From Candidatus Woesearchaeota archaeon (GTDB taxonomy: Archaea > Nanobdellota > Nanobdellia > SCGC-AAA011-G17 > DATDVL01), in contig CAYIRJ010000004.1 in assembly GCA_964365915.1 (NCBI GenBank), forward strand, positions 1 through 47,359: a stretch of DNA of 47,359 nucleotides, given 5' to 3'. Position 1 is the stretch's first letter; every line of letters begins with the position of its first letter. The position numbers were made by a program, and so were the translations under genes. Of the stretch, positions 4,202-30,595 are shown piece by piece. The notes under the pieces were generated by a model. That model worked only from the letters and a program-made list of their open reading frames with translations, was not told where the DNA came from and made no database searches.

Positions 4202-6811
4202 ATGGCAGAGGACTACGTTTACAAATATGTGGACCAGATCCAGTTTGGACTGTTAAGCCCGGAAGAGATCCAGAAAATGAGTGCAGTAAAAGTTGTGACG
4301 CCTGAGCTGTATGACAATGAAGGATACCCTGTGGATGGAGGATTGATGGATATTCGCCTGGGGGTGATTGATCCTGGCTTACGATGCAAGACTTGTGGAG
4401 GGAAACTCAAGGAATGCATGGGGCACTTTGGCTATATTGACTTGGCACGGCCTGTTATTCATATCAAGTACATCAAGATGCTTCTGGATTGCTTGCGGTC
4501 TTCCTGCAGAGAGTGTGGGAAATTATTGCTGCAAGATAAGGACATGGAGAAATGGGGTCATCGCTTAACAAAATCACAGGCAGAAGGGGGAGAAGATGCA
4601 CGCAGGGATGTGGTGAGTTCAGTCATTACTAGTGTGAAGAATATCAGAAAATGTCCGCACTGTAAGGCGAAACAATATAGTATCAAGATCGAGAAACCCA
4701 GCACCTTTATGGAAAATGACAGAAGATTGACTCCTATTGAGATCAGGACAAGGCTAGAACGCATTCCTGATGATGCACTAGTGTATCTGGGATTACAATC
4801 GAAATCTGCACGCCCTGAATGGGCAGTGATGAGTATTTTGAATATTCCTCCCGTAACCATGCGGCCGAGTATTACTTTGGAAACAGGAGAACGGAGCGAG
4901 GATGATTTGACGCACAAGTTGGGAGATGTGGTCAGGATCAACCAGCGGTTATTTGAGAACATCAATGCAGGCGCTCCTGAAATCATTGTGGAGGACTTGT
5001 GGGACTTACTGCAGTACCATGTGACAACCTACTTGGATAATACCATCAGCCAGGTTCCTCCTGCACGGCACAGAAGCGGACAGGCATTGAAAACCTTAAC
5101 CGAGCGCATCAAGAGCAAGGAAGGAAGATTCCGCCATAATCTCGCAGGGAAGCGCGTTAACTATGCTGCACGCACAGTCATCAGTCCTGATCCGAAAATC
5201 AAGTTCAATGAAGTGGGCATCCCCCAGCGGGTAGCAATGGAACTGACGGTTCCTGAGCGAGTGAATGTCTGGAATATTGCATTGCTGAAGGAACTGATTG
5301 AGCGCGGTCCTGAAGTGTATCCGGGAGCGAACTATGTCATTAGACATGACGGCAAGAAAAAACAGATTACTGAAGAAACACGAGAAGTGATTCTTGCGGA
5401 ATTGGGACCGGGCATGATTGTGGAACGGCATCTTGTGGATGGGGACATTGCTTTATTCAACCGGCAACCGAGCTTGCATAGGATGAGCATCATGTGCCAT
5501 CGCATTCGCGTACTTCCGGGAAAAAGTTTTCGGTTGAATCCGAGCGTGTGCAATGCGTTCAATGCAGACTTTGATGGAGATGAGATGAACTTGCACGTTC
5601 CGCAGACTGAGGAAGCGCGTGCAGAAGCAGAAATCCTGATGGAAGTGCAGACCCAGCTCATTACTCCGAAGCATGGCTATAATGTCATGGGATGTGTGGA
5701 AGATGCAGTTACCGGACTCTACTTGCTGACGAAGGGGGAGGGCATGCCATTTTCCAAAGAGGAGGCTGTACAACTGTTTGTTAGCATTGGTATTGAAGAT
5801 CCTAAGATCACCCGACAAAAAGTTAATGGAAAGGAATTGTTCAGCATGCTGCTGCCGAAGGATTTTACCTATGAAGGACTTGCCAAAGGTGTGCCGAAAG
5901 ATGCGGAATTAAAAAGAGGAGATGATGGCTTGGTTATTATTGAAAACGGGCAACTGGTGAGCGGCGTCATTGATGCCAATGCTGTCGGAGAAGAACGCGG
6001 AAAAATGATCATGGAATTTTATCGGCGCTATGGCCCGGTAACCACCATCGAATTTTTAGGGAACATCTTCAGGCTGGGGATTAAGGTCTTGCTGAAGCGC
6101 GGGTTTACGATCAGCATTGACGACATCGACATTACTGAGGAAGTGCAAGAGAAAATTACTACATCACTTAGCCAAGGGGATAAGGACGTGGATGAACTGG
6201 TCAAAGAATACCATGCAGGCAAGATGGAAACGCTGCCAGGAAGAACCCTTGCAGAAACTTTAGAAATCAAAACCTTAGGAGTCCTGAACAAGATCCGCGA
6301 CAAAATCGGACAATATGTTGCACAAAACACGCGTCCAAAAAATTCTGCGGTGATCATGGCAAAATCAGGTGCCAAAGGAAAAATTTTGAACCTTGCCCAG
6401 ATGTCAGGGTGCGTCGGGCAGCAGGCACTGATGGGACACCGCATTACTACGGGATACAAAGGAAGAACTTTGAGCATGTTCAAAAAGCACGATTTGTCTG
6501 CAAATGCGCACGGATTTGTGAAGAGCAGCTTCAAAAGAGGATTAAATCCTTACGAGTTTTTCTTCCATGCCATGACCGGAAGAGATGGATTAATGGATAC
6601 TGCACTGCGCACTCCTAAGTCTGGTTATCTTTATCGAAGGCTGGCAAATGCATTGCAAGACATGAAAGTGGAGTATGACAACAGTATCCGAGATGCCAAC
6701 AAGAACATCGTGCAGTTTGCCTATGGTGAAGACGGACTTGAAGTCAGCAAAACTTGGGGAGGCAATCTCAACATCAAGCGCATTGTGAAGAGTGTCAAAC
6801 ATGAAAGATAA
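4202..6811 (+). CDS. rpoA1: RNA polymerase subunit A'
   Basis: 869 aa. Zn motif CKTCGGKLKECMGHFG and catalytic NADFDGDEMNLHVPQ. Confidence 0.96.
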   Translation: MAEDYVYKYVDQIQFGLLSPEEIQKMSAVKVVTPELYDNEGYPVDGGLMDIRLGVIDPGLRCKTCGGKLKECMGHFGYIDLARPVIHIKYIKMLLDCLRSSCRECGKLLLQDKDMEKWGHRLTKSQAEGGEDARRDVVSSVITSVKNIRKCPHCKAKQYSIKIEKPSTFMENDRRLTPIEIRTRLERIPDDALVYLGLQSKSARPEWAVMSILNIPPVTMRPSITLETGERSEDDLTHKLGDVVRINQRLFENINAGAPEIIVEDLWDLLQYHVTTYLDNTISQVPPARHRSGQALKTLTERIKSKEGRFRHNLAGKRVNYAARTVISPDPKIKFNEVGIPQRVAMELTVPERVNVWNIALLKELIERGPEVYPGANYVIRHDGKKKQITEETREVILAELGPGMIVERHLVDGDIALFNRQPSLHRMSIMCHRIRVLPGKSFRLNPSVCNAFNADFDGDEMNLHVPQTEEARAEAEILMEVQTQLITPKHGYNVMGCVEDAVTGLYLLTKGEGMPFSKEEAVQLFVSIGIEDPKITRQKVNGKELFSMLLPKDFTYEGLAKGVPKDAELKRGDDGLVIIENGQLVSGVIDANAVGEERGKMIMEFYRRYGPVTTIEFLGNIFRLGIKVLLKRGFTISIDDIDITEEVQEKITTSLSQGDKDVDELVKEYHAGKMETLPGRTLAETLEIKTLGVLNKIRDKIGQYVAQNTRPKNSAVIMAKSGAKGKILNLAQMSGCVGQQALMGHRITTGYKGRTLSMFKKHDLSANAHGFVKSSFKRGLNPYEFFFHAMTGRDGLMDTALRTPKSGYLYRRLANALQDMKVEYDNSIRDANKNIVQFAYGEDGLEVSKTWGGNLNIKRIVKSVKHER

Positions 6812-9398
6812 CGCAATTGATTTTGCAGCAGCACTGCCGAAAAAAATTTTGGATGAGTTTGAAGAGCTGGCAGCAGCAGAAAAATTAACGCAGAAACAGA
6901 AACAGGAAGCACTGGCACTGCTGCATGAAGAATATCAGAACAGCAAGATCAGCCCTGGGGAGGCGATTGGGATCATCACTGCAGAGAGCTTTGGCGAACC
7001 AGGGACTCAAATGTCACTATTTTTTAGTAACAAAATAATTGTGAAAATAAACAACAATAAAATATTTACGGTAAAAATTGGACCGTTTGTTGATATGTTA
7101 ATGAAGATGAAAGGATCATTTAAACTCAACGATCATTCAGAAATTCTTCCTTTACATGATTTTGAAATTTATGTTCCTAGTTTAAATCAAGAAGAAAAGA
7201 TAGAATGGAAACGCGTGATTGAATGTAGTAGGCATATCACAAACAAAAAACTTATGAGAATTACTACTGCTTCTGGTAGGTCTGTTACCTGTACTGATAA
7301 TCACTCTTTTGTAAATCGTATTCATAATAAGATTACTCCAATAAAAGGGACAGAATTGCAAATTGGAAATAGAATTCCCGTTATTAATTCATTTGTGAAT
7401 CCCTTACCGATGCAAGAATTATCTATCAAAAACCACATCATCGATAATGAAGGAATAGTTGAAGAAAAAGGCGTACTTTCCAAACCAGGAACTAATGCTA
7501 AATCTATGAATGGAAGTTTACCATTAAATGAATCTACTGGATGGTTTATTGGTGCATATCTTGCAGAAGGCAATGGAGGAAAATACCACGCTTCTCTTTC
7601 CAATGTAAATGATAATTACATCAATAACGGTAAACGCTTCGCTGATTCTCTAGGTATTGAACCTGTCGACAGATTTTATATTGGAGAATATGGTCCAGGT
7701 AGATCATTAACATTACATTCTGGATTTTTAGGTAGTTTCATTATAACTCATTGTGGGCAAGGTTCAGATTTCAAAAAAGTCCCTTACTTTGCTTATTCTG
7801 CATCTGATGCGTTCATCTCTGGATTGCTGAGAGGCTACTTTGATGGCGATGGGAATTTCCATGTGGATAGAAAGATGATTCGCTGCTCTTCCAATTCCAA
7901 AGAATTAATAGATGGCATTGCCTTGCTGTTGTCACGATTCAGAATATTTTCCTTTAAAGTACAAGATAAGAAAGGGCAGCACTGGCTCTTGATTCCCTAT
8001 AAGTATGCTCCTTTATTCTTGCAGCACATTGGAAGCGATATTGATTACAAACGTGCTAGCCTCGAAACTTTAGCAGAAAAAGCCAAACGCTTCTGGAATT
8101 CGAGAAGCCAAGATTATACAGACATGATTTCAGGATTTGGAGAACTTTTCAGGAATACTGCAAAGAAGGTTGGCTATCCTACGCGTTACGTCAATAACTT
8201 TACGAACCGCCAAAAAATTGGAAGAACTGCCCTCTTCCGATACATGAAACTCTTTGAACATCTTGCCAAGGAAAAAAACATAGACATTAAGGATGAGCTT
8301 GCTATCATGCAGCGCATGTCTTCCTCTGATGTGGTGTGGGATGAGATTGTAAAGATTGAATATGTCGATAATGACAAGCCTGTTTATGACCTCAGCGTGC
8401 CAGGATTAGAAACATTCACGACAGCAGATGGCATTATCACCCATAACACTTTGAATGTTTTTCACTTTGCAGGCGTCGCGGAAGTGGCAGTGACCCAAGG
8501 ATTGCCCAGGCTTATTGAACTGTTTGATGCCAGAAAAGAAATCAAGACTCCTTTAATGGAAATTTATCTGGACAAGGATATTGCCAAGGATCCTGAAAAA
8601 GTGAGGAAGATGGCTGCACAAATCAGGGAAACCCGTGTCGAGGAAGTGGTCAGTGATTTTTCCATTGATGTTGCACGGCTGCAGATTGCATTGGTGCTGG
8701 ACAAACAGAAGATGAGAAACCTTTCCATTACCAACAATCAGCTAATGAAAGCACTGGAACAGGACATTAAAACTGCCTCGATCAAGGATGAAGGAGATAG
8801 CATTGTACTGAAAACTAAGGTAAAGGAAAATGAGCTGATGGAAACGTACAAGCTGAAGGAAAAAACAAAAACAGTGTTTGTCCGGGGAGTTGCGGGCATC
8901 ACCCAAGTATTGCCAGTGAAGGCAGGCAACGAGTTCATTATCCTTGCAGCAGGGTCGAATCTGAAGGAAGTGTTCGCACTGAAAGGAGTGGATGCTGCAC
9001 GTACGACTACGAACGACATCTTTGAAGTGCAAAAAGTGCTGGGTATTGAGGCAGCACGGCAGACCATCATTAACGAGGCGAAAAAAGTGATTGAGGACCA
9101 AGGACTGGAAGTGGATGTCCGTCATATTTTGTTTATTGCAGATGCCATGACTGCAACAGGAGTAGTAAAAGGGATTACTCGATCAGGCATTACTGGAGAG
9201 AAGGAAAGCGTGCTTGCCCGGGCCAGCTTTGAAACCCCTATTGAACACTTGGTGGATGCCTCGCTGGTGGGAGAAGTAGACTATTTGAATTCCGTCATTG
9301 AAAATGTGATGCTGAACCAGATTGTTCCTTTGGGAACAGGATTGCCTGACCTCAGGGCAGTGACCCAAACTGAGGACAAGGAAAAGAAGGAAGCATGA
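6792..9398 (+). CDS. rpoA2: RNA polymerase subunit A'' interrupted by an intein (390-aa extein plus 478-aa intein)
   Basis: The conserved A'' string GEPGTQM|TLNVFHFAGVAE is split by 478 aa. The ORF-track start at 6792 is GTG. ATG at 6801 is the alternative start. The gene overlaps the rpoA' stop (6809-6811). Confidence 0.93.
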   Translation: MSNMKDNAIDFAAALPKKILDEFEELAAAEKLTQKQKQEALALLHEEYQNSKISPGEAIGIITAESFGEPGTQMSLFFSNKIIVKINNNKIFTVKIGPFVDMLMKMKGSFKLNDHSEILPLHDFEIYVPSLNQEEKIEWKRVIECSRHITNKKLMRITTASGRSVTCTDNHSFVNRIHNKITPIKGTELQIGNRIPVINSFVNPLPMQELSIKNHIIDNEGIVEEKGVLSKPGTNAKSMNGSLPLNESTGWFIGAYLAEGNGGKYHASLSNVNDNYINNGKRFADSLGIEPVDRFYIGEYGPGRSLTLHSGFLGSFIITHCGQGSDFKKVPYFAYSASDAFISGLLRGYFDGDGNFHVDRKMIRCSSNSKELIDGIALLLSRFRIFSFKVQDKKGQHWLLIPYKYAPLFLQHIGSDIDYKRASLETLAEKAKRFWNSRSQDYTDMISGFGELFRNTAKKVGYPTRYVNNFTNRQKIGRTALFRYMKLFEHLAKEKNIDIKDELAIMQRMSSSDVVWDEIVKIEYVDNDKPVYDLSVPGLETFTTADGIITHNTLNVFHFAGVAEVAVTQGLPRLIELFDARKEIKTPLMEIYLDKDIAKDPEKVRKMAAQIRETRVEEVVSDFSIDVARLQIALVLDKQKMRNLSITNNQLMKALEQDIKTASIKDEGDSIVLKTKVKENELMETYKLKEKTKTVFVRGVAGITQVLPVKAGNEFIILAAGSNLKEVFALKGVDAARTTTNDIFEVQKVLGIEAARQTIINEAKKVIEDQGLEVDVRHILFIADAMTATGVVKGITRSGITGEKESVLARASFETPIEHLVDASLVGEVDYLNSVIENVMLNQIVPLGTGLPDLRAVTQTEDKEKKEA
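7014..8447 (+). mobile_element. Intein with LAGLIDADG homing endonuclease, in frame in rpoA''
   Basis: Starts at Ser (TCA 7014) right after GEPGTQM. Ends ..VYDLSVPGLETFTTADGIITHN (AAC 8445-8447), followed by Thr+1. Block B is TCTDNHSF. Two LAGLIDADG motifs: GWFIGAYLAEGNG and LLRGYFDGDGNF. The 5' part is very AT-rich (10/60 G+C at 7021-7080, against 30/60 at 6961-7020). Confidence 0.9.
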
Positions 9399-9652: not shown

Positions 9653-10060
9653 ATGCAGTATGACCTCCAGTTGATTGGCTATCTCAATACTTTTGAATCC
9701 CTAACCCGATCGAAAGTGAAGGATGTGTTCTTTGATGCTACGGAGACCTTGGTGTTTGTGATGCAGCCAGGAGAGATGGGAAAAGCCATTGGCAAGAAAG
9801 GCAGCAATGTGAAACGCTTAGGAAACTTGCTGAAGAAGCGCATTCGCGTTATTGAATTTTCTTCTTCTGCCATTGATTTTGTTAAAAATTGCACGCTGCC
9901 CTTGATTCCGAAAAAGATGGTGCAGGAAGTGGATACTATCACTATCACCATGGAAAATACGCAACAGAAGGCTATGCTGCTGGGAAGGAACAAAAGCAAT
10001 TTCTTGAATATGCAGAAGATAGTGCAGAGATATTATCCGGTGCAGCTGAAAGTGTTATAG
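9653..10060 (+). CDS. nusA: archaeal NusA-like transcription termination/antitermination protein (KH domains)
   Basis: 135 aa. KH signature GKAIGKKGSNVKRL. In the canonical position after rpl30e. Confidence 0.85.
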   Translation: MQYDLQLIGYLNTFESLTRSKVKDVFFDATETLVFVMQPGEMGKAIGKKGSNVKRLGNLLKKRIRVIEFSSSAIDFVKNCTLPLIPKKMVQEVDTITITMENTQQKAMLLGRNKSNFLNMQKIVQRYYPVQLKVL

Positions 10061-11266
10061 AAATATATCATCCTCAGCATCGTAGTCCATTCCTAAGGCC
10101 TTTGTGAATTTTACTTGGTTTTCCTTGATCTGCAGTTTTTGCAGTGCCTTGTTCCTTATTTGTCGAATTCTTTCTCGTGTCACGTTTCCCTCGATTGTAC
10201 CTACTTCTTCCAATGTTCTTTTTTCTCCTGTAAGATACAATAATCTTATTATTCTTTTTTCTCTTTCTTTTAAAGAAGTTTTATCAAGTGCTTGAATAAT
10301 CATTTCTTTATCATAGACTAAAATATTTTCCCTTATCCTTTCTTGGTAATCATGGCAATCTCTTTTTTCCAAATAATCAACTATTTCTTGATCTTGTTGA
10401 TTGTGCTGAATATTTTCTTTTGCTGGAGTTAAGTCCTGCTTAGCTCTGTCATCTAATGTCAACGTTCGATGAAGATTCTGATCTTTGGGTTCTTGGTAAA
10501 GAGTGTTTATTTCTAGATTTACAGGATTCAAAGCCTTGCATATTAATTCAGTTTTTTTATCCGCAATTTCTTCTCCTCTTATTACCTTTTCTGCCCTTAG
10601 GAATAAAAAAGAATCTAGATGCACTGCTGCATAGGAATAGTTATGATAATTTTCACTCATTACACCAAAAAAGGCAGCTCTATACACTGCTGTGTATCCT
10701 GGATGTTTTTCTGCTTTTCTCACGAAATTAATAATAGATATAGAAGCCCGCTGTATGAGATCTTCCAATGGTGGTGATTCTAAATTCCTTGATTTTCTAT
10801 AGCGAATAAATGATTTTCCTGCCTGCGTGGCTGTATGCAGAAAATACGTCTCCATAAATCGTTGCATCTCTTGTTCAGAATATCCTGCTTCTTTCAACGC
10901 TGGAGCAATATGCCCTCGATAATGATGTACAAATGTTGCATGGTATCTTTGATTTACTTCTTCTTGCGTGGCAGATGGGTGCTGCTGTAAAAATTTGAGA
11001 AAGTTCCTTTTTCTTTCATCCCAGACTTTCTCTGACAATTGCCCTTTTCCCCTATTCCAAGCTGATTTTGAAATGCCTACATCTTTTTTTGCATTGTTAA
11101 TTCTCAACCGGTAGAACTTTTTGAGAATGGATTCTAGTCCTGCTTTCCTTACATCCCTTATGCTCGCTCCTTGATGACTTGCTAAATAGTCATAAAATTC
11201 TGTTAATCCTCTTTCCCAATATGCGTAATCCTTCTGTACCTGTTTTTGCTCTGATATAGTAGTCAT
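10055..11266 (-). CDS. sigma-70 family-like protein (region 2-like and region 4 HTH)
   Basis: 403 aa. The C-terminus LKEREKRIIRLLYLTGEKRTLEEVGTIEGNVTRERIRQIRNKALQKLQ is the classic sigma-70 region 4.1/4.2 signature. LEDLIQRASISIINFVRKAEKHPGYTAVYRAAF resembles region 2.1-2.3. The gene is AT-rich (15/60 G+C at 10201-10260). Confidence 0.8.
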   Translation of the reverse strand: MTTISEQKQVQKDYAYWERGLTEFYDYLASHQGASIRDVRKAGLESILKKFYRLRINNAKKDVGISKSAWNRGKGQLSEKVWDERKRNFLKFLQQHPSATQEEVNQRYHATFVHHYRGHIAPALKEAGYSEQEMQRFMETYFLHTATQAGKSFIRYRKSRNLESPPLEDLIQRASISIINFVRKAEKHPGYTAVYRAAFFGVMSENYHNYSYAAVHLDSFLFLRAEKVIRGEEIADKKTELICKALNPVNLEINTLYQEPKDQNLHRTLTLDDRAKQDLTPAKENIQHNQQDQEIVDYLEKRDCHDYQERIRENILVYDKEMIIQALDKTSLKEREKRIIRLLYLTGEKRTLEEVGTIEGNVTRERIRQIRNKALQKLQIKENQVKFTKALGMDYDAEDDIFL

Positions 11267-13371: not shown

Positions 13372-15576
13372 ATGGGGAAAGCTACCACTATTGAAGATCT
13401 TAAGGCGTTGATGAAGAAGCCTGATAATATCAGGAATATCTGTACTTCAGCACACATCCATCACGGCAAAACGGCATTAACAGACAACCTTTTAGCAGCT
13501 GCTGGACTGATGAGTGAAAAGGCAGCAGGCAGTCTAGAAGAAGGCATGGCTACTTGGCAGCACAAGGATGAGCAAGAACGATTAATGACTGTGGATGCTG
13601 CGAACGTGAGCATGAGCCATGAGTATGAGGGGCAATCGTATTTGATTAATCTCATTGATACTCCTGGACACGTTGACTTTGGGGGCAATGTAACAAGGGC
13701 CATGCGCGCCATTGATGGTACGATTGTTTTGATTTGTGGGGTGGAAGGGATCATGCCCCAAACCGAGACTGTAATGAAGCAGGCCATCCGCGAACGGGTC
13801 AAACCAGTGTTGTTCATCAACAAAGTAGACAGGATGATCAATGAATTGAAATTGACTCCTGAGCAGATGCAGGAGCGATTCGTGAAACTGGTACTTGATT
13901 TCAACAAGTTAGTGGAAAATATTACAGAAGATGAATTCAAAGAAACATGGAAAGTTAACATTTTGGATGGTAGCGTGGCATTTGGATCTGCACGGGAAAA
14001 CTGGGGATTGAGCATTCCCAACATGAAGAAAAAAGGCATCACCTTCAAACACATCATTGAGCAATACACTTCAGGAAAACCCAAAGAGGAGATTACTGAC
14101 TGGTTCTGGAAGAACGCTCCTCTTTATGAAGTCATACTCGACATGGTGATTAAACATTTGCCGAATCCTCTGATTGCACAGCAATATAGAATTCCGCACA
14201 TCTGGAAAGGAGATATTCAAAGCCGTTTTGGGCAGGATCTGGTGCACTGCAATTCTGAGGGAAAAATTGCCTTTGTCATTACAAGAATTGTGATTGATCC
14301 GAAATTCAGCAGGGAGATGGCTGCAGGAAGGTTATTTTCTGGAACCATTAAAGATGGCATGCAGGTCTGGCTGAACAACGCCAAGCTGCACCAACGGGTA
14401 GGCCAAGTATTTCTCTATAAAGGAACAAGGCCTGAGCAGATTGGAGAAGCTGTTGCGGGGAATGTGATTGCCTTGGGAGGGGTTTCTGGATTTGCAGGAG
14501 AGACGATTACTTTAGAACAGGAGCAGCCGTTTGAGGATATGAAACACATCTTTGAACCTGTCATTACCAAGAGCATTGAACCTATGAAACCTCAAGATCT
14601 GCCGAAACTCGTAGAGATCCTGAAAAAAGTGAGCAAGGAAGATCCTTCCTTGAAAGTCACGATTAACCTGGAAACGGGAGAGAATTTAATTCACGGTATG
14701 GGAGAGTTGCATTTAGAGATTATTGAAAATAGGATCAAGGATGAGCGCGGTTTCCAGGTGAAGACAGGAGAGCCTATTGTTGTGTATCGAGAGACTGTGC
14801 AAAAGCCTTCTGTGGAAATGGAAGGGAAATCTCCGAACAAGCATAATAAATTCTACATTACTGTTGAACCTCTGAGCAAGGAATGGTACACATTAATAAA
14901 AGAAGACGTGCTCACAGGAGGAAAAATGAAGAAAGGCGATGCCGAGGCCTACTTGAAACTGGAAAAGGCAGGTATTCCTGTAAAGGAAGCAAAGAAAATC
15001 AGAGATGTCTACAATGAAAACGTGCTGATTGATGACACGAAAGGAATTGTGGCTATAGGAGAAGTGCAGGAACTGATTAATGAAGGATTTGAACAAGTGA
15101 TGCGCGAGGGTCCCATTGCTCGAGAGCCGTGCGTAAAATTAAAGGTATTTATCAAAGATTGCAAGCTGCATGAGGATGCAATCCATCGAGGGCCTGCTCA
15201 AGTGCTGCCTGCGATCAGAGAAGGTATCAAAGCTGCGATGGTGGATGCGAAGGCACTGCTCTACGAGCCGTACCAAGTTATTCTGATTGAGTGTCCCAGT
15301 GATTTCATGGGAGAAATCAACAAATTGGTTTCGAACAAGCGGGGTCAATTATTCGATATTGAGCATAAGGGCACAGAGATCTTAGTAAAATGCAGGATGC
15401 CGGTGGCTGAGATGATTGGGTTAGCTTCTGATCTGAGAAGCGCAACTGAAGGGAGAGGTACCTATTTCATGGTGGATCAGGAATTTGACAAGGTTCCTGG
15501 GGACTTGCAGGAAAAAGTGGCACGAAAGATTAGGGAAAGAAAAGGTTTGAATCCTGATCAAATGAACCTGAGCTAG
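13372..15576 (+). CDS. fusA: translation elongation factor aEF-2
   Basis: 734 aa. G domain AHIHHGKTALTD, DTPGHVDF, NKVDR. The diphthamide-site context HEDAIHRGPAQ is intact. Confidence 0.96.
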   Translation: MGKATTIEDLKALMKKPDNIRNICTSAHIHHGKTALTDNLLAAAGLMSEKAAGSLEEGMATWQHKDEQERLMTVDAANVSMSHEYEGQSYLINLIDTPGHVDFGGNVTRAMRAIDGTIVLICGVEGIMPQTETVMKQAIRERVKPVLFINKVDRMINELKLTPEQMQERFVKLVLDFNKLVENITEDEFKETWKVNILDGSVAFGSARENWGLSIPNMKKKGITFKHIIEQYTSGKPKEEITDWFWKNAPLYEVILDMVIKHLPNPLIAQQYRIPHIWKGDIQSRFGQDLVHCNSEGKIAFVITRIVIDPKFSREMAAGRLFSGTIKDGMQVWLNNAKLHQRVGQVFLYKGTRPEQIGEAVAGNVIALGGVSGFAGETITLEQEQPFEDMKHIFEPVITKSIEPMKPQDLPKLVEILKKVSKEDPSLKVTINLETGENLIHGMGELHLEIIENRIKDERGFQVKTGEPIVVYRETVQKPSVEMEGKSPNKHNKFYITVEPLSKEWYTLIKEDVLTGGKMKKGDAEAYLKLEKAGIPVKEAKKIRDVYNENVLIDDTKGIVAIGEVQELINEGFEQVMREGPIAREPCVKLKVFIKDCKLHEDAIHRGPAQVLPAIREGIKAAMVDAKALLYEPYQVILIECPSDFMGEINKLVSNKRGQLFDIEHKGTEILVKCRMPVAEMIGLASDLRSATEGRGTYFMVDQEFDKVPGDLQEKVARKIRERKGLNPDQMNLS

Positions 15577-16729: not shown

Positions 16730-17120
16730 ATGGTTTATCTTTTCAAGAACGATCGAGGAAGATTTACCTACAAGTTTCATACTCTTCTTGAAGGCAGGCC
16801 TCTGCGTGTGGGTGATATTTATCAGGAACTTACCGCTATTCAGGAATGCCTTGGTCAGCCCTGGCATGAGCACCCTGTTGCGCGACGCAGGATGGGAAAA
16901 GGTGAGATTACGCTTCCGGTATGGAACCTTGTCTCTTGTCATCCTCCGTTATGAACGGAACAAAACTCTTGTTGATGCCACTTTGAAAGCAGAAAAGTTT
17001 CTATCGCTTGACACTCCCGCGCTTCTTGCTCTTGAAGATTATTTCTTATCTTATCAGCACAAAGGAAAAGTCCTCCAACTTCTTCGAGAAAAACCTGTAT
17101 CTGCGTTTTCTGCGCTTTAG
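16730..17120 (+). pseudogene. hypothetical gene apparently split by a +1 frame change near 16860-16875
   Basis: Protein-like sequence runs in the frame of ATG 16730 (MVYLFKNDRGRFTYKFHTLLEGRPLRVGDIYQELTAIQECLGQPWHEH). It then continues in the +1 frame (..MSTLLRDAGWEKVRLRFRYGTLSLVILRYERNK...SAFSAL*). Each frame looks like junk outside its own half. Confidence 0.35.
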
Positions 17121-17671
17121 AATTCTTTCCTTTCCCTGAGATGCTTTATCAGTCCTGGAGGAAGCAAGGGCTTTCCCTTCCTGAGAACGTAAGTGAACGG
17201 CAGCTCTACAGATTCTGTTGTGTTCAAGTGAATTTCAATACCGTCTCGGAATTGAAGATCGTTCAGCTTCTTTCCCTGCATAATCTTTCTTGCCACATAG
17301 ACTGCAGTGTCTGTAGAGAACTGTTTCTTTCCTAGGTTTCTTGTGGGATAGGGGAGCTTTAAGGAAAGCTCTTTTTTGGTTCTTGCACGCGGAGGATGAT
17401 CACCTAAAATGCCCCCTAAAATCAGCGTATCAAACCTGTCCTGCGGGGATAATGTTTTTTGAGCAGACGGATCTAACACATATGCATTTGGGAACTTCAG
17501 CTGGAGAATTGATTTTTTATATACTGTCCCCCACTTTTGGAGTTCCCTTTTTCCCTTCTTGATATTGGTGAAGATAACATTTTCCTTTCCCGCAATCTTG
17601 GAAATGTGCTTGTATTCTATCAGGCACCAGGGAAATAATTCAGGTTCACGATGCTCGACGATGAACTTCAT
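17117..17671 (-). CDS. SPOUT-class SAM-dependent methyltransferase, DUF431/Sfm1 family
   Basis: 184 aa. MKFIVEH.EPEL..W.L.EYKHIS, GGILGDHPPRARTKKEL, STDTAVYVARKI and ELPFTYVLRKGKPLLPPG align closely with yeast Sfm1/YOR021C as I recall it. Confidence 0.82.
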   Translation of the reverse strand: MKFIVEHREPELFPWCLIEYKHISKIAGKENVIFTNIKKGKRELQKWGTVYKKSILQLKFPNAYVLDPSAQKTLSPQDRFDTLILGGILGDHPPRARTKKELSLKLPYPTRNLGKKQFSTDTAVYVARKIMQGKKLNDLQFRDGIEIHLNTTESVELPFTYVLRKGKPLLPPGLIKHLRERKEF

Positions 17672-25274: not shown

Positions 25275-25583
25275 ATGCCTCAAGCAAGAATCAACTTATC
25301 ATCCTTAGACATTGGAAAATTGAATGAGATCTGTACCAGCATTGTCGACATTGCAGATAAAACGAAGACCCAAATTTCCGGACCGATTCCTCTGCCGACG
25401 AAGCGATTGCGCCATACGGTGAGAAAAAGCCCGTGTGGAAATGGAAAAGCTTCCTTTGATAATTTTGAGATGCGCATCCATAAGCGCTTGATCTACATGG
25501 GCATTGATGATCGAGCATTGCGATTAGTCATGAGAGTTCCTATTCCTGAAGGGGTCCAAATCAGTATTGCAAGCGTTGAGTAA
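25275..25583 (+). CDS. rps10: 30S ribosomal protein S10 (uS10)
   Basis: 102 aa. ..GPIPLPTKRLRHTVRKSPCGNGKASFDNFEMRIHKRLI. Confidence 0.93.
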   Translation: MPQARINLSSLDIGKLNEICTSIVDIADKTKTQISGPIPLPTKRLRHTVRKSPCGNGKASFDNFEMRIHKRLIYMGIDDRALRLVMRVPIPEGVQISIASVE

Positions 25584-25687: not shown

Positions 25688-26119
25688 ATGGATGTTCAGC
25701 ATGCGTGCCATTGTTCATATAGGATTCGCTATCACATGGTGTTTGTGCTCAAGTATAGGAAAAATCTCATCAGCGATGAGATATTTGAATTTCTGAAAGA
25801 AATTTGCAAAGGGATTGAACAGCGTTACTTCATCAAGTTCGATGCTCTTGGCAGCGATGGAGATCATCTGCATTTGGTGATTGAAGCTGCTCCTCGCTAT
25901 GCTCCATCAAATGTTATGCAGATCTGCAAGAGCATTCTTGCAAAGCAAGTCTTCAAGCAATTTCCTGAAGTGCGTGAAGAGCTGTGGAATGGAGAGTTCT
26001 GGAGTGATGGAGGACACATTGATACTGTTGGAGATGGCAGAGGACTGGATGCAGTCAGGCAATATGTAGAAAAGCAAGGTAAGAAATCAGATCAGCTCAC
26101 ACTCTACTCGTTCGTCTGA
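25688..26119 (+). CDS. tnpA: IS200/IS605 family transposase TnpA (Y1, HUH)
   Basis: 143 aa. YHMVFVLKYRK, HUH motif GDHLHLVIE, and a C-terminal ..VRQYVEKQ tyrosine helix. Confidence 0.9.
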   Translation: MDVQHACHCSYRIRYHMVFVLKYRKNLISDEIFEFLKEICKGIEQRYFIKFDALGSDGDHLHLVIEAAPRYAPSNVMQICKSILAKQVFKQFPEVREELWNGEFWSDGGHIDTVGDGRGLDAVRQYVEKQGKKSDQLTLYSFV

Positions 26120-27063: not shown

Positions 27064-27441
27064 ATGCACCTTATGGAATCTTATCCTGTAACGATTACTG
27101 CTTCCCTTGATGAAGAGCTACAGCATACAACAACTGCAAGCTTTGCAGGCTATCAACCTGATAATATTGAACGTGATGAGGATGGATTCTTACGGGTATT
27201 TCTGAACAGTTATCAAATAGGAGACACGGAAACGTTAGGATTTATGAACTGGTATTCTCCTGAAAAAGTTGTCTTCATTAATGCAGATAAAGTAAGAACG
27301 CAGCCCGCGCTTGAATGGATTGTGTTGCATGAAAAAGGGCATACTTTGCATACGAATGAATTAACAAACAGAAGACACACCTATACTTACAATAACTATG
27401 CCATGCGTTCTCCTGAATTGATTCTTTCGGGAACGTACTAA
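27064..27441 (+). CDS. putative small zinc metallopeptidase (HExxH)
   Basis: Contains IVLHEKGHTLH. TATA TATTTAAG (27034-27041) lies about 27 nt upstream of ATG 27064. The ORF-track start at 26983 would overlap the divergent gene. Confidence 0.45.
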   Translation: MHLMESYPVTITASLDEELQHTTTASFAGYQPDNIERDEDGFLRVFLNSYQIGDTETLGFMNWYSPEKVVFINADKVRTQPALEWIVLHEKGHTLHTNELTNRRHTYTYNNYAMRSPELILSGTY

Positions 27442-27662
27442 GGCCTTCTGAAAAAGATCAGCATGAGAATAAAAATAATTATTGCAAGTATCCAGAGTAC
27501 GAAAAATATTTTTTTGTTGCCAAAACCAAACAACGGAATCGGGCCGAGAAAGATTCCTCCGGAAGCCTGCACATTATTTTTATTTTGCTGCAAAGATCCC
27601 ACAATAATAAGAAGGAGAGCAATGAACAATAAGATTATTCCGATATTGAACAAATTTGTCAT
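27438..27662 (-). CDS. small two-TM membrane protein (DUF131/TIGR00304-like)
   Basis: 74 aa. Two hydrophobic helices flank GGIFLGPIPLFGFG. Confidence 0.5.
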   Translation of the reverse strand: MTNLFNIGIILLFIALLLIIVGSLQQNKNNVQASGGIFLGPIPLFGFGNKKIFFVLWILAIIIFILMLIFFRRP

Positions 27663-27706: not shown

Positions 27707-27988
27707 TTACTCAGGATTAGGCATTAAGTCTGCAGGTGATGTGTGACCAATATTAATGAGCAGATCCACGCTTTTCAGATAAGCAGGATAGTCGCAGGAA
27801 CCCCAATTCGTGTCTAGCCAGATGACTATCTTTGCTTTTGTTTTCTTTCCTAGATAATCAGCAATAGCAGTGGCATAGGGCTTCAACCCATCTGCCAACT
27901 GGATACAGACTGTTCTCGCTTTCTCTTTTTTGATGCGCGCAATGATTTCCGGCCATTCCAAATCATATCCCTTGATGTGAGGTTGCAT
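27707..27988 (-). pseudogene. dph2: N-terminal remnant (93 aa) of diphthamide synthase Dph2
   Basis: ..ARTVCIQLADGLKPYATAIADYL...IVIWLDTNWGSCDYPAYLKSVDLLINIGHTS aligns with the first ~90 aa of archaeal Dph2 (~330-340 aa), including the first Fe-S cysteine. The remaining two thirds are absent. Confidence 0.65.
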
Positions 27989-28028
27989 ATTTCCTTCAAG
28001 CAGTGAGCGCTTTTATTTGTATCGGAAT

Positions 28029-28043
28029 CCTTTTATATAAATT
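28029..28043 (+). promoter_or_regulatory. TATA box (CCTTTTATATAAATT) for the AbrB-PhoU gene
   Basis: Centre lies about 24 nt upstream of ATG 28060. Confidence 0.4.
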
Positions 28044-28059
28044 CCTACAAGAAATATAT

Positions 28060-28974
28060 ATGCAGCGCAAGGTTGCCAAGATTGGGCCAAGCACGTTGAT
28101 GGTCAGCCTGCCCACGCAATGGGTAAAAAAGCACGGCATCAACAAAGGAGATGTGGTGAATGTGCTGGAGGATGGCGATAAATTAACCATCAATCTCGGA
28201 ACGCATACCCCTACAGAAAAGAGCGCAACACTTTCTGTCGAAGGACTTGATGTCATGCTGAGCAGGGCTATTGCTGGATATTATAAAAAAGGCTACTCTG
28301 AAATCAAGATTGTTTGCGATTCCCACAAAAAGCTTGCTGATGTCTATCAAGCATTAAATGTGCACTGGACAGGCATGGAAATTGTGGAACAAGGAGCTTC
28401 TCACATTTTGCTCCGTCAGGTTAGCGAGGTTACTAAGGAAAGTTTTCCTGCCATGCTTAACCGCGCCTTCCTTTTTTTGATTGCGACGAGTGATGCGTCC
28501 TGCCATGCGCTTACGTCTGGGAATAAAGAATCCTTACGGATGGTGGTTGCACGCGATCCTACACAAAATAAGTACTGTGATTTCTGCAGGAGAGTGCTGA
28601 ACAAAGAATCGATCACCGGAGCACCCATGATTTACTACATTGTGGAACAGCTTGAGCGGATGGGGGATTTGTATCGCGATCTTTGCAAGCATTTTCTGGA
28701 ACATCCCGCGAAGCTGAAAAAACATACTGCACTCTTCCAAGAGGCGCATGCATTGCTGCAACAGTTCTATACTCTTTATTACCGGTTTACTCTGGAACGC
28801 TATGAAACTCTGGGAACTTCCTTTAAAACATTGCAGAAGAGGATTGAAGATGCTCTTTCCCCTGCGGATAAACAAGATGTTTTCTTTCTGATGTATCTGC
28901 ACCAGATTGCAGAAGCCATTTTTGATATCAATGGTGCTGCACTGGTTCTTAACCTAGAAACACGGAAGGATTGA
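28060..28974 (+). CDS. AbrB/SpoVT-domain plus PhoU-domain regulator
   Basis: MQRKVAKIGPSTLMVSLPTQWVKKHGINKGDVVNV is an AbrB swapped hairpin. The later IVEQLERMGDLYRDLCKH is PhoU-like. The ORF-track start at 28003 lies upstream of the TATA box. Confidence 0.75.
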   Translation: MQRKVAKIGPSTLMVSLPTQWVKKHGINKGDVVNVLEDGDKLTINLGTHTPTEKSATLSVEGLDVMLSRAIAGYYKKGYSEIKIVCDSHKKLADVYQALNVHWTGMEIVEQGASHILLRQVSEVTKESFPAMLNRAFLFLIATSDASCHALTSGNKESLRMVVARDPTQNKYCDFCRRVLNKESITGAPMIYYIVEQLERMGDLYRDLCKHFLEHPAKLKKHTALFQEAHALLQQFYTLYYRFTLERYETLGTSFKTLQKRIEDALSPADKQDVFFLMYLHQIAEAIFDINGAALVLNLETRKD

Positions 28975-30595
28975 TACTTTCTTCAAATGATTTATTTAAT
29001 TCTGGATATGTTTCAGCAATTGCACGCTTGGTTCCTACATAGATACGCTCTATTCTTTCTTTATCTTCAGGCTTGCGGCGCTCTGACAGTGCAGCAAGCT
29101 GACACAACGAGTTTTGAATGGTAATATTCTTCCACGTATCTATCCAAAGCTGATAATCGCGAGCAGGAAAATATTTTTTCCATTCGTTCCATGCATGCTG
29201 CAAGAGTTCATTACGCTGACCTGGACGGGCAGCCATGAATGCAGCAATGTCGTGCAAAGAATCGGAACGTCCACCGGTCTCCCAGTCAATGACATATCCC
29301 CCTTCCAAAACGTTTGATTCTGCAGCATCACGATGCGCAAGCACTTCAATCCCTAACAGATTACGAAGCTTCGCAAGATTTTCCAATTTTCTTTCGTACT
29401 GGTCCAAAAATTCCTGCTGCCTTGAATGCTGCAACCTTCTCCTGCACCTTCTCTTAAATTCATCTTGATAATCATGCACCGGCTCATCAGGAAAATGCTC
29501 TTGGTACGGGCCTGTTCCTGCTGCCATCAACTTGATGAGATGGGTAATGCCTTGCTTGAAATCATTTAAGTTATTTTCTGCACATTGGTTCAAAGTTTTT
29601 TTGTTTACTCGACGCGTTACAAGAATATACTCCTCCCCATATGGAAAACTGCTCAACGGATCTTCGCATGGCACCTGTTCAATATTCAGTACACCATAGC
29701 GTTGTATATATGCATCTCGCTGCAAACTGGCTATTGCTTCCTCTCGCTTCAATGCTTTTGGATCAATACTACGCTTGAAGAAATAACTATCTTTAGTGAA
29801 AAGATTCTCTTTGCATTCTAACAATACATGTGTCTTGCGGGATTGTGTAACTTTAGCTAATCGTGCAGGATTCTCTAAGATCTTTTCCAATGAAGAACGA
29901 AAATGCTGCTGTGCACGTTTGTATTCTCCCAGAGAACGACAAAAAATTCCTGCCAATAATTCAAGATTTACCGTGTTCTCAGGATATTTCTTAGGAAGCG
30001 ACTCGACTATTCGATGTGCAAGGTAATACCAACCCGATCTTTGATACATATCAAACCGCATAATATCCTTTCTTAATGTCCCACGGAAAGGAAATCCCAA
30101 CCATCCCAACAACGGCAGCATATATTCTGCAAATGTTTTAATATTATCATATTTTTTTTGGTTTTGGATCTTTTGTGCAGTATACAAAAAATATTGATCA
30201 TATCTCTGATTGAGGAACGCTTCCTTTGCACATAGGTCCAAATAAATAGTTGGATTATTTGTTTGTTCTTTTATTGTATCGATTTTTTCAAGGATTTTCT
30301 TTTTTTTCCCAAAAACAGTTTTCGCAAGAGGGAGTATTCCCGTTTTTGGTTCTGCACTTGTTAAGAAGCAAGATGTCATGAACGTCCCACCAAAAAAGCC
30401 CAAAAAAAACAAACGAAGATGATCTTCAATAGGTAGATCTATGTCTGATAACCAATATCGTATTCCTCCATAGATAACTGCGCCCCCTCCTATGGAAAGA
30501 CCATTCATTTCTTTTACCCATTTTTGATGCTTTCGTAATCTCTCCTCAAGCGTTTGTTCCTGATACATCAACTTTTTCTCGTTTTTGAAATTCAA
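28949..30595 (-). CDS. membrane-anchored protein with a C-terminal APH/choline-kinase-like phosphotransferase domain
   Basis: 548 aa. N-terminal hydrophobic helices (GLSIGGGAVIYGGIRYWL, FFLGFFGGTFMTSCFL) and C-terminal LAHRDAAESNVLEGGYVIDWETGG (HxDxxxxN, IDWE). Confidence 0.6.
   Translation of the reverse strand: MNFKNEKKLMYQEQTLEERLRKHQKWVKEMNGLSIGGGAVIYGGIRYWLSDIDLPIEDHLRLFFLGFFGGTFMTSCFLTSAEPKTGILPLAKTVFGKKKKILEKIDTIKEQTNNPTIYLDLCAKEAFLNQRYDQYFLYTAQKIQNQKKYDNIKTFAEYMLPLLGWLGFPFRGTLRKDIMRFDMYQRSGWYYLAHRIVESLPKKYPENTVNLELLAGIFCRSLGEYKRAQQHFRSSLEKILENPARLAKVTQSRKTHVLLECKENLFTKDSYFFKRSIDPKALKREEAIASLQRDAYIQRYGVLNIEQVPCEDPLSSFPYGEEYILVTRRVNKKTLNQCAENNLNDFKQGITHLIKLMAAGTGPYQEHFPDEPVHDYQDEFKRRCRRRLQHSRQQEFLDQYERKLENLAKLRNLLGIEVLAHRDAAESNVLEGGYVIDWETGGRSDSLHDIAAFMAARPGQRNELLQHAWNEWKKYFPARDYQLWIDTWKNITIQNSLCQLAALSERRKPEDKERIERIYVGTKRAIAETYPELNKSFEESINPSVFLG

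Follow-up and report, generated by a model that had tools for sequence, protein, structure and literature searches.

Throughout, the window is the whole stretch of DNA that was analysed, 47,359 nucleotides in length. The archaeal RNAP-NusA-S12-S7-EF-2-EF-1α-S10 region is present here in its classical form, interrupted by insertions, and 2 kb beyond the S10 gene lies the small open reading frame (ORF) that is the subject of this report. The ORF runs from ATG to stop over 93 codons on the minus strand and resembles the N-terminal domain (NTD) of the diphthamide synthesis enzyme Dph2. The features that matter for what follows are listed here.

6792-9398, plus strand: RNA polymerase A'' gene with an intein (Intein_splicing and LAGLIDADG_3 matches inside Rpb1 domain 5)
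10055-11266, minus strand: 403-aa protein between NusA and S12, with Sigma-70 region 4 HTH as its sole Pfam match (E 1.3e-10)
13372-15576, plus strand: EF-2, the Dph2 substrate, 734 aa (TIGR00490 aEF-2, 923 bits)
17117-17671, minus strand: SFM1-like SPOUT protein arginine methyltransferase, between EF-2 and EF-1α (PF04252, E 1.4e-52)
25275-25583: ribosomal protein S10, preceding the Y1 transposase
25688-26119, plus strand: IS200-like Y1 transposase, just after S10 and before the NTD gene (PF01797, E 1.8e-30)
27438-27662, minus strand: DUF131 membrane protein, the next minus-strand gene, starting 45 bp downstream of the ORF
27707-27988, minus strand: the dph2 NTD gene, 93 codons, ATG to stop, probably encoding domain 1 of a split Dph2
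27989-28059: divergent intergenic region, 71 bp, A/T-rich, separating the NTD gene from the MazE/AbrB-PhoU gene
28060-28974, plus strand: MazE/AbrB-PhoU fusion protein, 304 aa, divergent from the NTD gene
28949-30595, minus strand: APH-like kinase-fold protein, 548 aa, with a long N-terminal extension, overlapping the MazE/AbrB-PhoU gene

In canonical archaeal Dph2, a [4Fe-4S] cluster is held by three cysteines, one from each of three domains. With this cluster the enzyme cleaves SAM and transfers the 3-amino-3-carboxypropyl group to a conserved histidine of EF-2. This three-domain, three-cysteine picture is established from the structures of PhDph2 (3LZD), CmnDph2 (6BXM), and MsDph2 (6Q2D).

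The original prediction took the ORF for the first ~90 residues of Dph2, including the cysteine, and profile searches together with a structure-based alignment bore this out. PF01866 (Diphthamide_syn) matched at E 4.4e-10 (39.9 bits, cut-off 33.2) over profile positions 2-55 of 302, and the Dph1/Dph2 domain model TIGR00322 matched at E 1.9e-18 (67 bits, cut-off 35) over positions 1-82 of 320. Both scores place the 93-aa product in the Dph1/Dph2 superfamily, with domain 1 alone covered. The equivalog TIGR03682 reached 48.7 bits, far under its cut-off of 202.8. A single-chain Dph2 (TIGR03682 / arCOG04112) has three cysteines and ~330 aa; the ORF has C64 only, and the further claim that the other two Fe-S ligands are missing from it is correct. 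The alignment to the solved M. smithii Dph2 (6q2d_A) spans residues 3-85 at E 1.2e-10, with WGSCD of the ORF opposite FGACD, and the same region of Dph2 from Ca. Methanoperedens and P. horikoshii also aligns. Across domain 1, the ORF is 29-39% identical to canonical archaeal Dph2, and its cysteine aligns with the first cluster ligand.

The predicted fold agrees with the profiles. An AlphaFold model of the ORF product (pLDDT 76.2) returned Dph2 chains as its top 15 PDB matches (TMq 0.58-0.71), and the predicted structure has the fold of Dph2 domain 1. Three features stand out in the protein: C64 within WGSCD, which is the first [4Fe-4S] ligand, the GH motif at G80-H81, and the tail DLMPNPE. The ORF ends at HMM position 84 plus a tail of 8 residues, as expected of the NTD of a split Dph2. 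An identical ORF with the same neighbours was found on three independently assembled contigs from assemblies of 0.1-µm-filtered Hainich groundwater, and it is therefore no assembly artefact. The window derives from the Hainich H51 0.1-µm fractions, with ENA assemblies ERZ1292627 and ERZ1292643 and run ERR3858114.

The substrate of Dph2 is encoded in the same window. EF-2 contains CKLHEDAIHRGPAQ, and its diphthamide loop of the form H-x-D-x-x-H-R-G is intact, with His605 as the target; the earlier reading that EF-2 keeps HEDAIHRGPAQ is accurate. EF-2 in the window has no intein. The intein site differs between relatives, lying in RNA polymerase A'' (with a LAGLIDADG homing endonuclease) in the window and in EF-2 (a 1224-aa product) in the relative represented by L001/L002. 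No ORF matching Dph5 or Dph6 was found within the 47-kb window, which is only part of the genome. Similarly, no second piece of Dph2 was detected when all six frames of these 47 kb were searched at maximum HMM sensitivity with a full-length Dph2 profile of 333 positions built from 25 proteins.

Around the ORF itself, the DUF131 membrane protein gene downstream is unrelated to Dph2, as had been stated. In the 71-bp region on the other side, TATA-like TTTATATAAA occurs at ~28032-28041, and CAAATAAAAG is found on the minus strand ~22-31 nt upstream of the NTD ATG. Judged by their letters and position, these boxes are candidate promoters. GAAGGA is present just 5' of the NTD start on direct reading. 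The divergent pairing of the NTD gene with the MazE/AbrB-PhoU gene is kept in 13 other retrieved loci (L001-L009, L042, and the window's own L109-L111), which represent only a few related lineages. Both the MazE/AbrB-PhoU fusion and the APH-like kinase-fold gene are syntenic with the NTD within the window's sub-clade. The Y1 transposase separates the NTD gene from the translation cluster, and such an element could help explain local rearrangement. Elsewhere in the window, the bacterial-type Sigma-70 region 4 match of the protein at 10055-11266 is unusual for an archaeal RNAP/ribosomal cluster.

Stand-alone NTDs of this kind form a large family. In a word-indexed protein search, the ORF had nine close homologues, 76-108 aa long and 62-99% identical to it, all from Nanoarchaeota-type MAGs or metagenomes. 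Eight of the nine are 90-108 aa long, and the 76-aa homologue is flagged as partial by its source. The close homologues share the C-terminus GHTSPxDLMPNPE-stop, and NWGSCDYP also marks the window's sub-clade. When the stub alignment was searched with HMMER against 1.8 billion cluster representatives, 693 matches were obtained at E<=1e-3. Nearly all of the best ~58 clusters at 50% identity were 64-133 aa long (one was 158 aa), with the match reaching the C-terminus, and full-length Dph2 (320-340 aa) first appeared at E~1e-12 in this search. C64, D65, G80, and H81 were invariant in 47 of 47 stand-alone NTDs, every one of which stops no more than ~10 residues past the GH motif.

A genome scan with one genome per GTDB species identified at least 434 NTD loci. 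The best 80 of these came from 80 different assemblies, nearly all labelled as Woese-, Pace-, or Nanoarchaeota MAGs. The best genome matches of the ORF itself were to Woesearchaeota, Nanoarchaeota, and Pacearchaeota MAGs, with 79% identity to a Woesearchaeota MAG, which places it among the lineages with split Dph2. Among the best 80 loci, the NTD frames that are complete on their contig stop at HMM positions 84-97 of 333, mostly 84-89, while one contig-truncated NTD ends at position 66. A stand-alone archaeal Dph2 NTD was also seen on a 2.7-kb contig (L081, JAFCCF010000080.1) in a MAG labelled Candidatus Aminicenantes bacterium; this is probably a mis-binned DPANN contig.

Comparison of the ORF with its relatives gave saturated synonymous sites but a dN of only 0.09-0.58, with omega of 0.07-0.33 where computable. 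By the NG86 method, dS was undefined (saturated) for most pairs, and dN/dS therefore supports a qualitative statement only. The stand-alone NTD is a stable gene under purifying selection and no truncation remnant. The original prediction had described Dph2 as reduced to a stub. That description does not hold, as the ORF belongs to a large conserved NTD family with a fixed end point, and a family of C-terminal domain (CTD)-only proteins complements it.

The CTD-only family came to light in three of the 80 best NTD loci (L054, L085, and L086), each of which has a second Dph2 ORF covering profile positions ~90-316. In L054 and L085, the CTD starts directly after the NTD, TAA then ATG, in the other frame. 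In L086, the CTD is 2.1 kb downstream of the NTD, and two unrelated genes lie between. The CTD-only proteins are 220-255 aa long and keep both of the other cluster-cysteine motifs, GQxLGC and NTACPR. CTDs cut from full-length Dph2 gave an output dominated by full-length proteins when used as the query, and the three loci above were used as seeds instead. The resulting CTD-only profile had 4711 matches in the protein database, and the best 120 were all 227-267 aa long. On two CTD-only proteins, PF01866 aligned over profile positions 76-284 and 81-270, compared with 2-55 on the stub. NTD (2-88) and CTD (90-316) tile the full-length Dph2 profile, as a gene split cleanly at the boundary of domains 1 and 2 would. 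Given a large NTD family of fixed length and a CTD family with exactly the cysteine motifs that the NTD lacks, the stub is best read as a subunit, not a remnant.

The two halves occur in paired and in dispersed arrangements. A metagenome scan with the CTD profile gave 50 loci, comprising ~25 pairs, in which the halves are adjacent or at most ~1 kb apart, 6 full-length or eukaryote-type proteins, and ~15-19 orphan CTDs, defined as having no NTD in flanks of up to 10 kb. Separated pairs are known at 0.4-2 kb spacing as well as directly adjoining ones. In the adjacent pairs of L054 (911-918), L085 (10245-10261), and L112 (9989-9999), just 1-2 nt separate the stop codon of the NTD from the start codon of the CTD, which is in a different frame (GGATGGTAAGATG, GGATGGTAAAATG). 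Such spacing suggests translational coupling of the halves. Several CTDs have an NTD of 89-90 aa directly upstream, in the order CarS-like gene, CDP-alcohol phosphatidyltransferase (opposite strand), NTD, CTD. The orphan CTD P0419 (222 aa) directly follows a CDP-alcohol phosphatidyltransferase gene, with a 38-bp gap at the position that the NTD takes in the pairs. An orphan CTD is without one of the three cluster ligands and therefore depends on an NTD from another locus, for which orphan NTDs such as that of the window are the obvious candidates.

Both kinds of orphan are found near translation genes. In at least 12 distinct lineages, an orphan NTD has S10, EF-1α, or EF-2 no more than 10 kb away, and in the Pacearchaeota locus L014, EF-2, EF-1α, and the NTD follow in this order on one strand. 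The long contigs JBAZJB010000001.1, DAOWKC010000002.1, and CAYGYR010000001.1 are among those with orphan NTDs. Orphan CTDs adjoin S7 in five loci. The S7-associated orphan CTD loci named in the analysis are L150 (8370-10642), L134, L137, L156, L136, and L132. The gene order in L150 is RpoB'-RpoA'-RpoA''-NusA-S12-S7-CTD, with the CTD where EF-2 usually follows S7. The halves may have been separated by the break-up of one ancestral translation gene cluster. That both stay near translation genes, including the gene for the substrate, fits a retained role in EF-2 modification. Near another orphan CTD (L149), we also observed a homologue of the SFM1-like methyltransferase (41% identity).

Neighbour-joining (NJ) trees of the NTD and the CTD have the same shape. 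In both, full-length Dph2 is set apart from a single clade of split halves. The paired lineages are nested in that clade, with matching internal groups in the two trees, and the orphans fall outside the nested paired group. The trees were built on short domains without support values, and different seeds were used to sample the two sets of loci. The congruence of NTD and CTD is therefore supportive, rather than conclusive.

For the genome represented by the window, we searched for the matching CTD. It is absent from the 47-kb window, and in the closest relatives (L001-L013) a six-frame, maximum-sensitivity HMM search of up to 10 kb around the stub found none. Megablast of orphan NTD loci against orphan CTD loci gave no overlapping contigs. 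The overlap of NTD and CTD contigs was limited to one lineage (L086/L125), which has both halves ~2 kb apart. Among the proteins examined by NCBI accession, some of which are absent from NCBI, none placed an orphan NTD and an orphan CTD in a shared MAG. GC and tetranucleotide distances, compared within one metagenome, linked no orphan NTD to an orphan CTD either. Look-ups of the genes at the ends of the window returned only contigs of 2.8-6.3 kb at ~4x coverage, and the window was not extended. The samples with orphan NTDs and those with CTDs derive from the same aquifers, and the GC content of paired loci from Hainich is 27.5%, versus 41.6% in the window. The original prediction had offered three options: loss of diphthamide synthesis, a second dph2 elsewhere, or a new role. 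The second comes closest, except that the gene to be expected elsewhere is the complementary half and not a full-length copy.

Split Dph2 has been reported before. Several DPANN genomes were described as having two genes, for the NTD and CTD of Dph1/2, which were concatenated for phylogeny (Narrowe 2018, PMC6143161). A review lists split Dph1/2 in Parv-, Pace-, Woese-, and Altiarchaeota (Dombrowski 2019, PMC6349945). In the nanoarchaeon Nst1, the split genes include a 'Diphthamide synthase sub. DPH2' encoded by the non-adjacent Nst_222 and Nst_440 (Podar 2013, PMC3655853). Split Dph2, including its dispersed form, is already described, and the ORF is a known kind of split gene. Compared with the DPANN split Dph1/2, the window belongs to the same taxonomic group and has the same stand-alone NTD of ~90 aa, with nothing different in kind. 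As in Nst1, the halves need not adjoin. What is added here concerns the size of the family, its constant break at profile position ~88-90, the adjacent and dispersed arrangements, and the location of dispersed halves near the EF-2/EF-1α/S10 and S12/S7 clusters.

Two other systems are useful for comparison. The canonical single-chain Dph2 homodimer (3LZC/3LZD, 6BXM, 6Q2D) and the ORF are alike in the sequence and fold of domain 1, and the chemistry and substrate are presumed to be the same. However, the ORF's polypeptide lacks domains 2-3, and with them two cysteines and the majority of the contacts to SAM and EF-2. The eukaryotic Dph1-Dph2 heterodimer, like split Dph2, makes an active enzyme from two gene products of the same superfamily. 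Its subunits are full-length paralogues with three domains each, whereas split Dph2 is one protomer spread over two genes.

Taken together, we consider it likely that the ORF is the N-terminal subunit of the two-gene Dph2 known from DPANN archaea. A 93-aa ORF is most likely ordinary for this lineage and no sign of loss of the diphthamide pathway. In Woese-, Pace-, and Nanoarchaeota, dph2 would have been cut at the boundary of domains 1 and 2, with one gene encoding domain 1 (~90 aa, with the cysteine in xGxCD) and the other encoding domains 2-3 (~220-255 aa). The halves would be dispersed in this genome, with a CTD gene presumably located beyond the 47-kb window. The 93-aa protein would supply domain 1 and Cys64, and would dock non-covalently on the separately encoded domain 2-3 protein. 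The joined halves could then rebuild the three-cysteine cluster site and act like an ordinary Dph2. We know of no biochemical demonstration of an active enzyme assembled from the two halves. The target of the complex would be His605 of EF-2, whose gene lies 12 kb from the ORF, and the remaining steps would fall to Dph5 and Dph6 from other loci.

Several alternatives have to be weighed against the split-subunit reading. The first holds that the CTD half or the whole pathway was lost, and that the NTD was repurposed, for example as a small Fe-S- or EF-2-binding factor, or that diphthamide is no longer made. It draws on the lack of a CTD, Dph5, or Dph6 in 47 kb, on the sub-clade's own conserved NWGSCDYP and GHTSPxDLMPNPE, and on the documented loss of diphthamide synthesis in other archaea (PMC6143161). 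However, the window samples little of the genome, neither the Fe-S cysteine nor the GH motif varies, and purifying selection on the ORF is strong. The sub-clade is also nested in the general family of stand-alone NTDs, which has CTD-only partners. EF-2 keeps the full diphthamide loop, although this is a weak argument against pathway loss because canonical EF-2 retains the diphthamide motifs even in dph-lacking lineages (PMC6143161). On balance, we regard loss of the half or of the pathway as unlikely.

A related possibility is prompted by NWGSCDYP, by the tail GHTSPxDLMPNPE, and by the move next to EF-2/EF-1α/S10. The NTD of the window's sub-clade could supply its cluster ligand as a dissociable subunit that gates Dph2 activity, perhaps in a regulatory role, or it could have another partner, or its genome could be CTD-less. 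We judge this to be quite unlikely. The conserved tail DLMPNPE of the sub-clade is the one feature that leaves a little room for loss of the CTD with a new role for the NTD.

It is very unlikely that the ORF is an extra, paralogous NTD beside a complete NTD and CTD pair, or beside a full-length dph2, elsewhere in the genome. Paired and orphan NTDs do fall into separate groups of the NJ tree, and paired loci and orphan NTDs occur in the same metagenomes. Two findings nevertheless speak against this scenario. No genome among the best 80 species representatives has two NTD loci, although paired NTDs score like many orphans (46-51% identity), and there are orphan CTDs, which need an NTD encoded in trans. 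The orphan NTDs HLD12255 and HLD15161 have accessions distant from those of the pairs HLC70931/2 and HLD79371/2, which indicates different MAGs, and the GC difference between the Hainich paired loci and the window points the same way.

Finally, a decaying pseudogene, frameshift, or assembly artefact of a full-length dph2 would leave just such a match to the first quarter of the protein, but this is highly improbable, given that no Dph2-like sequence follows in any frame before the next gene 45 bp on, that length and C-terminal tail are kept down to 62% identity, that dS is saturated with dN low, and that the arrangement is identical on three independent contigs. The pseudogene or truncation reading is effectively refuted, the relatives showing neither a dN/dS near 1 nor variable stop positions.

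The identification of the ORF as a probable split-Dph2 subunit leaves the current understanding unchanged. For annotation, it means that a 93-aa Dph2 match in Woese-, Pace-, or Nanoarchaeota does not equal a pseudogene or the loss of diphthamide. In the same groups, Dph2 is unsuitable as a single-copy completeness marker, a point already made as a warning against Dph1/2 as such a marker (Narrowe 2018, PMC6143161). For the enzyme family, split Dph2 amounts to a natural experiment in which two polypeptides contribute the three cluster ligands of a non-canonical radical-SAM site, and it could be used for the biochemistry of [4Fe-4S] assembly across a subunit interface.
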